Below, in pieces: positions 29,936 through 43,670 of a DNA stretch of 64,000 bases. The stretch's first letter is position 1. Each line of letters opens with the position of its first letter. The DNA is taken from positions 1 through 64,000 of the IMG/VR virus record IMGVR_UViG_3300036985_003303. One strand, 5' to 3'. Origin of the DNA: a virus. Under the pieces are notes generated by a model. The model worked only from the letters and a program-made list of their open reading frames with translations. It did no database searches and was not told the DNA's origin. Made by a program: the position numbers and the translations under genes.

Positions 29936-30106
29936 TTAGTTTTTAGAATTAAACAATGGAGAGATTATGTTAACCACCATACAAGTCAATGACAAAGTCA
30001 ATGCAGTTATGGACATAACATACTGGTCTGTTGTATCAGACTCAAGCACTTCGATAGTGCTAACGCCACTCATAACAATGAGTAGCAAAGAAAATAAATG
30101 TTTCAT
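29936..30106 (-). CDS. 56-aa hydrophobic early protein
   Basis: MKHLFSLLIVMSGVSTIEVL...; first ORF after motif copy 3. Confidence 0.5.
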   Translation of the reverse strand: MKHLFSLLLIVMSGVSTIEVLESDTTDQYVMSITALTLSLTCMVVNIISPLFNSKN

Positions 30107-30157: not shown

Positions 30158-30360
30158 AAGAGGTGGTCATTCTAGTTGAGTACATACAACATCTAACCAC
30201 TCCTGGTGTGTCTGTGTCTGCTTGTCAGGACATGTGCTTCCGTGTCCTGGTGTGGTGCGAGCTTGCGAGCACAGGCTCTGCTCTCCTCTGCACAGACCTC
30301 TCTCCCCTGGAACTTTTTCTTGGATCCTGTTGTGATTTTTCTTTCGGCTTGAGATTTTAT

Positions 30361-30408
30361 GGGGGGTAGCACCCTCCAGCTGATTGACGGGGGGATAAAG
30401 AACTAGGG
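30361..30408 (+). repeat. G6-N22-G6-N11-GGG motif, copy 1
   Basis: GGGGGG tagcaccctccagctgat TGAC GGGGGG ataaagaac TAGGG. Confidence 0.7.
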
Positions 30409-30500
30409 ATGTTCCCCACATCATTATACATTATATTTTTGATTTACCCACATCATAATACTCTCTGGATCCATATTACCCAAAATTTGTATTTTTGTCT

Positions 30501-30803
30501 ATGGACTATTCAAATATGTGGTGGAATGATGCTATAGAGATTCCTCTAATGGTCAAGCATATGCAGATAATAAAGCATTTTGAAAAGAAGTATGGTGTGG
30601 AAGTTAACAGAGAAATGACTTTTGTAGAATCTAAGTACATAGCAGATGCTATTACACAAATCAAATTTCTAAAAGTTCGGAAGATCATAGATACCAACAA
30701 AGCCTGTACGTTGTTTAGGCTAGTCTGCAGTACGGATCAAGAGAGTAAGCAGATGGGATTAGACCTAATGCAACAGCTCAAGGCCAAGGCTAGAAAAAAA
30801 TAA
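30501..30803 (+). CDS. Hypothetical protein with C-terminal SxDxE motif
   Basis: First plus-strand gene; TATTTTTG box at 30490-30497 immediately before the ATG. Confidence 0.65.
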   Translation: MDYSNMWWNDAIEIPLMVKHMQIIKHFEKKYGVEVNREMTFVESKYIADAITQIKFLKVRKIIDTNKACTLFRLVCSTDQESKQMGLDLMQQLKAKARKK

Positions 30804-30873
30804 GTATGAATTGTTACGGGTTGTATCTTTAAGAGAAAGTTTATTATATTTGTTTTCATAAAACAATCAGATC

Positions 30874-31014
30874 ATGGCAAAAATGGGATTACAAGGATCG
30901 AACACTAGAGTTGCTGTTAAAGTTACTAGGCCTGGTGTTCACGCAAAGACCAAAACTTCAAAGTCTAAGCAAAGCAAGAACTACAAAAAGGCCAACAGAG
31001 GCCAAGGCAGATAA
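30874..31014 (+). CDS. 46-aa Lys/Arg-rich protein
   Basis: MAKMGLQGSNTRVAVKVTRPGVHAKTKTSKSKQSKNYKKANRGQGR; TATATTTG at 30845 upstream, terminator downstream. Confidence 0.7.
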   Translation: MAKMGLQGSNTRVAVKVTRPGVHAKTKTSKSKQSKNYKKANRGQGR

Positions 31015-31066
31015 TATTCCGCTTCTCTCTCCAGGCGGGCTACGGTGTGACCACACAGTTGCACAG

Positions 31067-31102
31067 AACCCTTACGAACTTCTACCCTCGTAAGGGTTTT
31101 TT
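31067..31102 (+). terminator. Intrinsic terminator
   Basis: AACCCTTACGA/TCGTAAGGGTT stem plus T-run. Confidence 0.8.
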
Positions 31103-31125
31103 ATCTTCCTAAATATACTAATATA

Positions 31126-31173
31126 GGGGGGACATCAAAAACCTAGCAATGACGGGGGGTATAGAAGATAGGG
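31126..31173 (+). repeat. G6-N22-G6-N11-GGG motif, copy 2
   Basis: GGGGGG acatcaaaaacctagcaa TGAC GGGGGG tatagaaga TAGGG. Confidence 0.7.
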
Positions 31174-31259
31174 TGCACCCAAATAGGTGCAAAAACACGC
31201 AAATTAAAGAAAAATTGCACCAAAAAGGGTGCATAATCCAATTATCTTTAGTAGATTTG
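31174..31259 (+). promoter_or_regulatory. Two TGCACC-N6-GGTGCA operators and a TAGATTTG -7 box
   Basis: Palindromes at 31174-31191 and 31216-31233 (42 bp apart); TAnnTTTG at 31252-31259. Confidence 0.65.
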
Positions 31260-31263
31260 TGTC

Positions 31264-31488
31264 ATGATAAAAAAATATTTAAAAATTGAACCTGCTGATT
31301 CTAAAAAATATCAGATAAAAGGCGGTGTGAAGGATGAGTTTGGAATAATGACTGGTTTAATAATTAGACCTTCATTTAAAGATAGACTTTGGATTCTATT
31401 AGGTTATGATATTGGTGTGGGTATCACTGTTATTACTGATAAACCAGCCAAACCTATTAGTACAACACACAGTTGTAATTTAATGTAG
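31264..31488 (+). CDS. Small hypothetical protein
   Basis: 74-aa ORF right after a promoter box. Confidence 0.55.
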   Translation: MIKKYLKIEPADSKKYQIKGGVKDEFGIMTGLIIRPSFKDRLWILLGYDIGVGITVITDKPAKPISTTHSCNLM

Positions 31489-40950: not shown

Positions 40951-41452
40951 ACTATTTGATGCAATAAATGGTAAAGTAGTTCCAACGGAACACTGCCAAA
41001 CTATTCCTTTCTTGAGAAGGATAATGGAAGAATATCCAGATAATCATTTAGAGATTTATGCTTACTTATTTTACATGAGTTGCAGGAGTTCTGAAAATCC
41101 ATATTTTAACCGACCTCAAGATGAAGTGCAAGATGAAATTCTTTCAGATTTAAATCCTAACTTTGATCCAGAAGATAGACTTATTCGTATGGCACTGGAT
41201 AGATGCAAAGACATGTATGAAACGCCAACCATTCGTGCTTACAATGGTATTTCTAACATGCTAGAAAAGTTAGCGTTTTATATGAACACTCAAACCATTA
41301 CAGATGGTAGAGATGGAAATATTACAGCTATTGTGAGTGCTGCAAAAAACTTTGATGCCATTCGTAAATCATTTAAAGGAGTGGCAAAAGATTTGGAAGA
41401 AGAACAATCATCAAGAGCCAGAGGTGGACAAAAACTAAGTTACGATGACTAA
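40940..41452 (+). CDS. Hypothetical protein (candidate terminase small subunit)
   Basis: Overlaps the TerL start; function from position only. Confidence 0.5.
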   Translation: MAIKLFDAINGKVVPTEHCQTIPFLRRIMEEYPDNHLEIYAYLFYMSCRSSENPYFNRPQDEVQDEILSDLNPNFDPEDRLIRMALDRCKDMYETPTIRAYNGISNMLEKLAFYMNTQTITDGRDGNITAIVSAAKNFDAIRKSFKGVAKDLEEEQSSRARGGQKLSYDD

Positions 41453-43670
41453 TGATGACCTAGGGGAGTTCCATCAAGATATACCTCTTTGGGACAATGG
41501 TGTTTGGACAACTTATAGTTTTCCAAGCAGACTTGATATGGCTACAACTTTAGAAGCAGATTATTTTAAAGAACCTGGTCAATATGATTTTGATGAAATA
41601 GTTCATGAGTTCCAAAAGCAAGGACTCAAATTTAAAAAAGTGAGTTATTTCTGTGATGCCGCAGATGGCACTAAAGACTTTATTGACTATTGGGATGATC
41701 AAAAATTAAAATGCAGAAAAGGAGTTTTGTTTTGGAAAGGTGATAAAAAGTATTACCTGCCGCGTGATTACTATTTCTGGATTAATTTTTTGCCAATCAT
41801 TGATAAAGTAAAAAGAAAAACAGATTTTCCAGACATACATGATGCGCAATATCACATGTCACTTTATGAAGCAATTGGAGAATTGTTTTATTTGCATGGA
41901 ATTATCTTAAAGAAAAGACAGTTTGGATCTTCATTCTACCATGGAGCCAAACTAGTAAATGTACTATGGTTTGAGTATGGACCAGTTCTTAAAATCGGTT
42001 CTTCATTAAGTGCTTATGTAACGGGGGTGAATGGTACTTGGAAAATGATCAATGAGTACAAAAACTTTTTGAATCAACATACTGCCTGGTACCGACCAAT
42101 GAATCCGTCAGGTGTCGGTGAGTGGCAACAGAAAATTGAGTATGTTGAAAATGGTAGAAAAACAGAAAGAGGTAGAAAAGGAGTTCTTCAAGCGTTGTCA
42201 TTTGAGCAATCAGATACAGCCGGTGTAGGGGGACTTTGTACTTTGTTCTTTTATGAAGAAGCAGGAATTGCCAAATCCATGGATAAAACATACGAGTTCA
42301 TGCTTCCTGCATTACAAGCCGGTGAAATTACTACAGGTTATTTTATTGCATCTGGAACCGTAGGTGATTTGAAACAGTGTGAACCTTTGCGTAAATACAT
42401 GCATAAAGCCAAGGGAAATGGATTCTATGAAGTAAAGAATAAATGGGCCGATCCAAAAGGAACAGTTCTTACCACAGGATTGTTTATTCCAGAACAATGG
42501 TCAATGCCTCCATACATTGATGAGTTTGGTAATTCTAAAGTAGAAGAAGCATTAGAAGCATTAATTGAGTTAAAGAAACAGTGGAAAAAAGATTTAGATC
42601 CAGAAACATATCAGATCCGTTGTTCTCAGCGACCAACTAACATGGAAGAAGCATTTGCCTTTAGAGGTGAAAGTATATTTCCATTGGAACTGGTTAAGTC
42701 ACACAAACGTGATATTGAAGAAGGTGATTATCCTTATTCTTGTTACAACTTAGCTTATGATAACAAAGGTGAGATTGTTGCATCACCTACAACCAAGAAA
42801 CCAATACTGATTTTTCCTACAGATAAAAGCGCAGAAGATAAATCTGGCGCAATACAAGTATGGGAAGAGCCAGATGAAGAAAAGGATTTTTGCACCACAT
42901 ATTTTGCATCTGTGGATCCCGTGTCTGAGGGAAAAACAGTAACCTCAGATTCACTTTGTTCTATTCATGTTTACAAGAATCCAATACAAGTACAAAGGGT
43001 ATTGGCTAATGGGGAAGTGGAAACATTCATTGAAGGAGATAAAATTGTAGCAGCCTGGACCGGCAGGTATGATGACATCAACAAAACACATGAAAGATTA
43101 GAACTTATCATTGAGTGGTATCAAGCATGGACAGTTGTTGAGAACAACGTGCCTCTATTTATACAATACATGCAGTTTAAGCGCAAGCAAAAGTATTTAG
43201 TGCCCTCTTCTCAAATAGTTTTTTCTAAAGAAGTACAGCAGTCTAAAACTCAATTCCAACAATATGGTTGGCGAAATGTTTCCACCATATTTAAGACTGT
43301 AATGTTGAGTTATTTAATTGAGTACCTTAGAGAAGAACTTGATGTGGAAACAGATGAAGACGGGAAGATCTATAAGAAGCATTATGGTATATCCAGAATC
43401 CCTGATTACATGGCCATGGTTGAGATGGAACACTACCAACCTGGAGTCAATGTGGATAGATTAATTTCTTTGGGAGCTTTGATTACATTTGTAAAAATAC
43501 AAGAAGCAAGCAGAGGTTTGAAGAAAAGAGTTGAATATGATAATGAAGAAGATTTGGAAAAGTCAGAAAATTTGTATAAATTAAATAGGAGTCCTTATAG
43601 ACATCTTGGATCAAGCAGTGAATCTTTAAGTATGAAGAAACCGCGCAATCCATTTAAAAACTTTAGATAA
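41445..43670 (+). CDS. terL: Terminase large subunit
   Basis: KKRQFGSS ATPase motif, FFYEEAG Walker B, SGT, ASVDPV nuclease Asp; 741 aa upstream of portal. Confidence 0.9.
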   Translation: MTNDDLGEFHQDIPLWDNGVWTTYSFPSRLDMATTLEADYFKEPGQYDFDEIVHEFQKQGLKFKKVSYFCDAADGTKDFIDYWDDQKLKCRKGVLFWKGDKKYYLPRDYYFWINFLPIIDKVKRKTDFPDIHDAQYHMSLYEAIGELFYLHGIILKKRQFGSSFYHGAKLVNVLWFEYGPVLKIGSSLSAYVTGVNGTWKMINEYKNFLNQHTAWYRPMNPSGVGEWQQKIEYVENGRKTERGRKGVLQALSFEQSDTAGVGGLCTLFFYEEAGIAKSMDKTYEFMLPALQAGEITTGYFIASGTVGDLKQCEPLRKYMHKAKGNGFYEVKNKWADPKGTVLTTGLFIPEQWSMPPYIDEFGNSKVEEALEALIELKKQWKKDLDPETYQIRCSQRPTNMEEAFAFRGESIFPLELVKSHKRDIEEGDYPYSCYNLAYDNKGEIVASPTTKKPILIFPTDKSAEDKSGAIQVWEEPDEEKDFCTTYFASVDPVSEGKTVTSDSLCSIHVYKNPIQVQRVLANGEVETFIEGDKIVAAWTGRYDDINKTHERLELIIEWYQAWTVVENNVPLFIQYMQFKRKQKYLVPSSQIVFSKEVQQSKTQFQQYGWRNVSTIFKTVMLSYLIEYLREELDVETDEDGKIYKKHYGISRIPDYMAMVEMEHYQPGVNVDRLISLGALITFVKIQEASRGLKKRVEYDNEEDLEKSENLYKLNRSPYRHLGSSSESLSMKKPRNPFKNFR

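Follow-up and report, generated by a model that had tools for sequence, protein, structure and literature searches.

Genome ends in described crAss-like phages

crAss-like phages are among the most abundant viruses of the gut and the sea. Nearly all of them exist only as circularised assemblies, and so the physical ends of the genome, the mode of packaging and the end that leads into the cell have yet to be determined.

In the linear RefSeq record of phage DAC15, an exact direct terminal repeat is annotated at 1-1842 and 97653-99494. According to the DAC15 preprint, these ends were derived by a PhageTerm analysis of reads from the isolates, in which both DAC15 and DAC17 showed clear terminal repeats. 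The two phages are 97% identical and thus represent one lineage of mapped-end evidence. Five small genes of the early arm lie in the 1,842-bp repeat of DAC15, and the arm itself begins about 110 nt inside the right end of the genome.

For two further phages, packaging has been reported as a terminal repeat of 576 bp (crAss001) and as pac-type headful packaging (crAss002). The coordinates of the crAss001 repeat and the crAss002 pac site were not found in the papers or supplements. Additionally, transcriptomics of phi14:2 assigned the replication arm to the early class, transcribed by the polymerase that the phage injects, and the structural arm to the middle/late class, transcribed by that of the host.

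Two G-run units at the strand switch

The DNA studied here (the window) spans positions 1-64000 of a virus record of 117,346 bp (G000). The record represents a crAss-like phage, whose genes form two divergent arms. PHROG matches place the terminase large subunit (TerL) at 41445-43670 and also identify the portal, the major head protein, a DNA polymerase and a helicase. The closest isolates share only about 25% TerL identity with the window phage, and when the 29-33 kb part of the window was compared with GenBank phages at the nucleotide level, no match was found.

The replication arm lies on the minus strand, left of 30.1 kb, and the packaging/structural arm on the plus strand, from 30.5 kb. 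A gap of 395 bp separates them and holds the first of the two G-run units. The features of this region are as follows.

29936..30106, minus strand: first gene of the minus (replication/early) arm; arm assigned from phi14:2 transcriptomics and the gene content of the window
30160..30340, no strand: GT/CT-rich island, 51% GC, between the first early-arm gene and G-box 1
30361..30394, plus strand: G-box 1 (G6-N18-TGAC-G6), at the divergent junction; relatives have a box at the same position
30395..30408, plus strand: 9-nt spacer and TAGGG after G-box 1; predicted terminase cut at 30403/30404, by analogy with DAC15
30412..30484, plus strand: three TT(A/C)CCCA(C/A)A boxes spaced exactly 32 bp, the first two extending into a 15-nt repeat
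30501..30803, plus strand: first plus-arm gene, 100 aa, no family, not conserved among relatives
30874..31014, plus strand: second small gene, 46 aa, lysine-rich, with a TAnnTTTG box at 30845-30852
31066..31102, plus strand: intrinsic terminator, hairpin and T-run, ending about 20 nt 5' of G-box 2
31126..31159, plus strand: G-box 2 (G6-N18-TGAC-G6), lineage-specific extra copy
31160..31173, plus strand: 9-nt spacer and TAGGG after G-box 2; second predicted cut at 31168/31169, by analogy with DAC15
31172..31233, no strand: GGTGCA/TGCACC cluster after G-box 2, five boxes (three direct, two inverted) in 62 bp, operator-like

The two units, G6-N18-TGAC-G6-N9-TAGGG, lie on the plus strand at 30361-30408 and 31126-31173. 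Their geometry can be read directly and is as the original prediction described it: the G6 runs start at 30361/30389 and 31126/31154, 28 nt apart within each pair, the second run is preceded by TGAC (30385-88 and 31150-53), TAGGG follows it after 9 nt (30404-08 and 31169-73), and the units are 765 bp apart with both on the plus strand. The strand switch assigned to this place is real: on the minus strand the last ATG lies at 30106, and the plus strand has its first at 30501. The two small genes said to lie between the units, their TAnnTTTG boxes and the terminator before the second unit were all found.

The TAnnTTTG boxes are of the host type and are confined to the plus side of the window, which is consistent with the division of arms and polymerases in phi14:2. 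The box at 30490-30497 is separated from the ATG at 30501 by only 3 nt. In the stretches 30490-30503 and 31252-31266, the host-type boxes end only 3-4 nt before the ATG. Such spacing suggests that these plus-arm genes are expressed from leaderless mRNAs.

The three boxes at 30412-30484 are 1-2 bases off a DnaA box; the third of them lies directly against the promoter of the first gene in the plus arm. Similar C/A-rich boxes are present 3' of the G-box in relatives and in DAC15. The GGTGCA/TGCACC cluster is conserved in relative G002. In the case of the GT/CT-rich island, composition is kept in relatives G002, G001 and G016, and sequence is not. RNA folding of the island together with G-box 1 gave z-scores of -1.8 and -1.4 with no covariation, and an Rfam search gave no match below E = 0.7. 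We dropped a structured-RNA reading of island and box because the fold z-scores were weak and covariation was absent on both strands.

Rarity of the motif in the genome

Only 6 G6 runs occur in the 64-kb window, and the full motif is found nowhere else in the 117,346-bp genome, which leaves two copies in total. Genome-wide, there are 13 G-runs of at least 5 nt against 28.6 expected from first-order Markov simulations, a more than twofold depletion. Outside the boxes, this depletion looks like avoidance of the signal in the rest of the genome. The two boxes account for 4 of the 13 runs.

We defined a G-run pair as two runs of at least 5 nt separated by 12-30 nt. Two such pairs were seen in the genome against 0.075 expected, and at least two were reached in 0.5% of the simulations. 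The original observation is confirmed.

Conservation of the G-box in relatives and named phages

Relatives were found by a pattern scan of IMG/VR, followed by TerL-based retrieval and scans of whole records. A motif search in related genomes had been suggested as a check of the original prediction, and it showed that the element is kept at the minus/plus junction and on the TerL-sense strand. IMG/VR relatives with TerL identities of 96-52% carry one or two boxes there. The shared pattern is G4-6, usually TA, about 20-25 nt and G5-6, with run starts about 28 nt apart and a total length of 31-36 nt (one exception of 28 nt). In the alignment, only the G-runs and the TA after the first run form invariant columns; the spacer sequence is variable. 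On the strength of this conservation, both units are taken as copies of one conserved element, the G-box, which is shared by Crassvirales and some other phages. We found no paper describing this motif.

Both units are present, 762 bp apart, in two IMG/VR relatives that are about 90% identical to the window at the DNA level. Two boxes also occur in G002 and G018 (1181 bp apart) and in G001 and G017 (129 bp apart). Most relatives have a single box, among them G016, G004, G006 and G007 with one each at the switch and the distant L011 (TerL 52% identical), whose unit lies at its own gene-direction switch. Where two boxes exist, the spacing is thus 129, 762-765 or 1181 bp. G-box 2 itself was found only in the closest relatives (L021, L030, G002 and G018). 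The recurrence of a single box at the same junction points to box 1 of the window as the ancestral copy and to box 2 as a lineage-specific extra one.

The neighbouring genes are not kept in the same way. Those between the boxes differ among close relatives, and the first plus-strand genes are unrelated; we therefore rejected the idea of a conserved regulator gene beside the box. Retention of the box without its adjacent genes is what would be expected of a signal acting genome-wide.

Among more distant phages, whose TerL identity to the window phage is only 20-25%, the box was found in 12 named genomes: crAss001, crAss002, FpV4, phi14:2, IAS virus, DAC15 and six metagenome genomes (cr10_1, cr55_1, cr4_1, cr128_1, cr11_1 and cr131_1). 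Each has one box, 3.8-14 kb upstream of TerL and on the sense strand of that gene. Orientation is shared by all 12, and 11 of them have the box at the gene-direction switch; the exception is cr131_1, whose context is ambiguous. Coordinates in five of these genomes are as follows.

133-165: crAss001 box
92498-92529: crAss002 box
358-390: FpV4 box
98010-98043, minus strand: phi14:2 box
1796-1829: DAC15 box

The pattern scan gave no match in cr273_1 and cr127_1, and the sole match in ProJPt-Bp1 lies inside a gene and was judged to be due to chance. In crAss001 (MH675552), a second box-like element is present at 99501-99531 on the minus strand. It faces the reverse way, forms a good hairpin and lies 3.3 kb from the main box, directly after an HNH endonuclease gene in the replication arm.

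A wider scan recovered the same box at minus/plus junctions of many further AT-rich phages, some with closely related TerL. Three complete genomes carry a G-box together with an unrelated terminase, and in the non-crAss phage G025 the box is 500 nt upstream of TerL. A 65-kb phage whose TerL has no match to the window clade (G042) has two back-to-back G-boxes, one per arm, at C1:57087-57163. Its close TerL relative L255 has instead three G6-TA units about 15 bp apart (at 397, reverse strand).

Position of the box relative to mapped genome ends

The repeat of DAC15, and with it the right end of the genome, stops 13 nt after the second G-run of the box, just before a TAG. This TAG is followed by a C/A-rich block, and the layout is the same in the window, where box, N9 and TAGGG precede the C/A-rich boxes. 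The distance and arrangement from box to end are identical in DAC17. The chance that a boundary falls within about 15 nt of a unique 34-nt element in 99 kb is approximately 6e-4. Given that the DAC15 repeat ends 13 nt after the box, the G-box is most likely a terminase end-cutting signal, with the cut some 9-13 nt downstream of the second G-run. We hold this reading with slightly better than even confidence.

It is worth stressing that the DAC15 repeat runs from its single box leftward into the early arm. At the left boundary of the repeat, no comparable box was found, so the box cannot be the sole determinant of the ends.

Ends of metagenomic contigs give a similar picture in part. In two scans, 11 IMG/VR contigs ended within 40 nt downstream of a box against about 2 expected, compared with 1 against about 2 upstream. 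An excess on the downstream side suits a physical end; these contigs belong mostly to unrelated, GC-richer phages, and the pattern could also be a sequencing or assembly artefact at G-rich DNA. In the clade of the window phage, no contig ends at the box, and the distances from box to upstream contig end are scattered over 0.25-3.4 kb. In a separate phage family with a G5-TGTT...G6-T-G5 box (L341, L360, L413, L370), 4 of 6 contigs end 3-66 nt past the box.

The presence of the box both in crAss001, with its terminal repeat, and in crAss002, with headful packaging, fits a general terminase signal. At the same time, a pac-type headful mode in crAss002 suits a pac site rather than a fixed repeat boundary. 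In crAss001, no clear feature was found 576 bp upstream of the predicted cut, and there is no second box at that distance. Two further points weigh against an end-cutting role: the mapped ends come from the DAC15/DAC17 lineage only, and the occurrence of an identical box alongside unrelated terminases is unusual and would better suit an element that is structure-based or read by the host. This sharing is the chief argument for giving the box a structural role, or one in transcription or replication, in place of end cutting.

If the G-box is a terminase signal, the terminase or a partner protein would read the two G-runs and cut about 9-13 nt downstream. By analogy with DAC15, cuts in the window would fall just before TAGGG, at 30403/30404 and possibly also at 31168/31169. 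Such a cut would leave the box on the end that bears the start of the early (replication) arm. Were this end packaged last, it would be ejected first and would thus probably lead into the cell, so that the injected polymerase would meet the early genes. For the window phage we infer recognition by the terminase, the cut positions, the box or boxes used and the side on which the repeat lies. Two layouts may be considered. In one, which follows DAC15, the repeat would reach from box 1 to the left, into the early cassettes; in the other, it would consist of the 765 bp between the two cuts. We rate the former slightly likelier because box 1 is the orthologous copy.

The box would lie about 10-15 nt from the DNA end that enters first, and we propose that it could be the entry point of a polymerase reading the early arm inward. 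Across the order and beyond it, the box would then both direct the final cut and serve as a loading point for the co-injected virion RNA polymerase. We regard this dual role as speculative and rather unlikely.

Alternative explanations

The original prediction held that the two units are terminase sites which define a direct terminal repeat of about 0.75 kb. In its exact form, cuts 9 nt after each box would make 30404-31168 (765 bp, two small genes) the repeat. Both boxes have the full box-N9-TAGGG arrangement in the same orientation, both boxes of G002 are followed by N9-10 and TAG, the size is in the range of the 576-bp crAss001 repeat, and relative to box 2 the repeat would extend leftward, as it does in DAC15. 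However, most relatives (including G016 and L011) do not have box 2, the spacing between boxes varies from 129 to 1181 bp, and the genes between them differ even in close relatives. Moreover, seen from the ancestral box, the repeat of DAC15 is on the side of the early arm, whose genes it contains, and its left boundary has no box. The prediction is partly supported: the DAC15 and DAC17 ends 13 nt from a box and before TAG speak in kind for terminase sites, and a repeat between the copies is one candidate layout. We consider a 765-bp repeat unlikely, though slightly likelier than the other alternatives.

A replication origin, which the original prediction named as its alternative (a bipartite origin), would be another way to explain a single locus per genome at which both gene direction and GC skew flip. 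Here an initiator or a primase would act at the box, or its G-rich sequence would stabilise an R-loop primer, and the boxes spaced 32 bp apart would be iterons. In the window, crAss001, FpV4 and crAss002, the box is followed by repeated boxes and A/T-rich tracts, with A-tracts 3' of the box in crAss001 and FpV4. Additionally, origins of prototypic crAssphage have been predicted at the equivalent junction in the literature, with coverage support. Presence of the box in unrelated phages would fit a structure-based element. A canonical intramolecular G-quadruplex needs four closely spaced G-tracts; the window boxes have two G6 runs each, and the boxes of some relatives (L046, L119 and L255) have three to five tracts.

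Against an origin, the GC skew tracks gene direction and is thus not independent evidence. No initiator gene is adjacent, as the flanking small genes belong to no family and are not conserved. DnaA-box-like words show only a mild excess in the window (47 against 36.6 expected, with 3 of 100 shuffles reaching 47). An origin would also leave unexplained the 13-nt distance to the mapped genome end. We find this explanation unlikely.

A transcription signal is the third alternative. The box would be either a binding site for a factor, or an insulator, at the head of the middle/late arm, or else a site on the template strand where the injected virion RNA polymerase loads to read the early arm leftward. 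The box keeps a fixed orientation towards the arms and is found 75-160 nt upstream of the first gene on the plus strand, and terminators precede it. The back-to-back boxes of G042 face one arm each, and the crAss virion polymerase has no known promoter motif in the literature. Spacers also lean towards hairpins: 12 of the 27 examined fall in the best 16% of shuffles. Nevertheless, 9 of the 27, including that of box 2, are unable to fold, and only one beats all shuffles; a test for an N4-like hairpin promoter found no conserved stable hairpin in the box among these 27 spacers.

The box is unlike the host -33/-7 promoter, and neither element of the Bacteroidota primary-sigma promoter (-33 TTTG and -7 TAnnTTTG) lies inside it; the host-type boxes are separate, beside each ATG. 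There are only one or two box copies per genome, and the box is also present in phages with an unrelated terminase. In phi14:2, it lies more than 150 nt upstream of the region that must hold the P110 promoter. We consider a role in transcription unlikely too, to the same degree as an origin.

Chance similarity or an assembly artefact without function is effectively refuted by the conservation of the box, since, although G-runs at contig ends can be sequencing artefacts, both copies are internal to the contig, the element recurs in assemblies made independently and in isolates from across an order, and only 0.075 pairs are expected per genome.

Comparison with known packaging and promoter systems

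The closest parallel to the window is in DAC15 and DAC17, which share with it the architecture of the box, its strand, its position at the junction, a TAG soon after the second G-run and the C/A-rich block. The differences are that DAC15 has one box per repeat copy and 13 nt rather than 9 nt between box and TAG. Its 1,842-bp repeat with five early-arm genes is mapped, whereas the window, with its two boxes, is known from sequence alone. TerL identity between DAC15 and the window phage is only about 21%.

Further parallels come from general background on better-known viruses. In herpesviruses, the pac1 signal lies some tens of bp from the genome end and has two G/C runs with an A/T-rich core between them. 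The terminase that reads it belongs to the same virus realm, and the position of the cut is set by the distance from the signal. Unlike the G-box, with 18-25 nt between its runs, pac1 has a core of a few bp; the sequences are unrelated, and common descent is unsupported.

P1 pac and lambda cos are likewise bipartite recognition sites, with short repeated boxes that bracket or adjoin the cut. They differ from the G-box in sequence and spacing and in the absence of a divergent gene junction, and P1 pac is additionally controlled by methylation. Phage N4 injects its own virion RNA polymerase, and a few copies of the hairpin promoters for it lie near the genome end that enters. Small hairpins are formed by some G-box spacers too, though not by all, and the polymerases of crAss-like phages and N4 are unrelated.

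The concatemer junction of T7 resembles the proposed arrangement in having a short exact repeat at a defined junction and early genes at the end that enters first. The 160-bp repeat of T7 contains a C5/G5 palindrome (NC_001604, 26-41); one half of it, G5-TA-CC, matches the G-box in its first half, and a GT/CT-rich stretch after the palindrome is like the window island. The G5-TA likeness may be coincidental. The word lies more than 100 nt from either boundary of the T7 repeat and has no assigned role, all T7 genes point in one direction, and the terminase signals are otherwise different.

Significance

A marker that recurs at the same junction throughout the order, and at a mapped end in DAC15 and DAC17, would make genome ends of crAss-like phages predictable from sequence and then testable. 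As such a marker, the G-box would allow genome maps to be oriented and would tie the early genes to the entering end and the injected polymerase. It would also give the terminase a concrete substrate for biochemistry. If the dual role is true, both the physical and the first-transcribed ends of uncultured crAss-like genomes would be readable from sequence alone.
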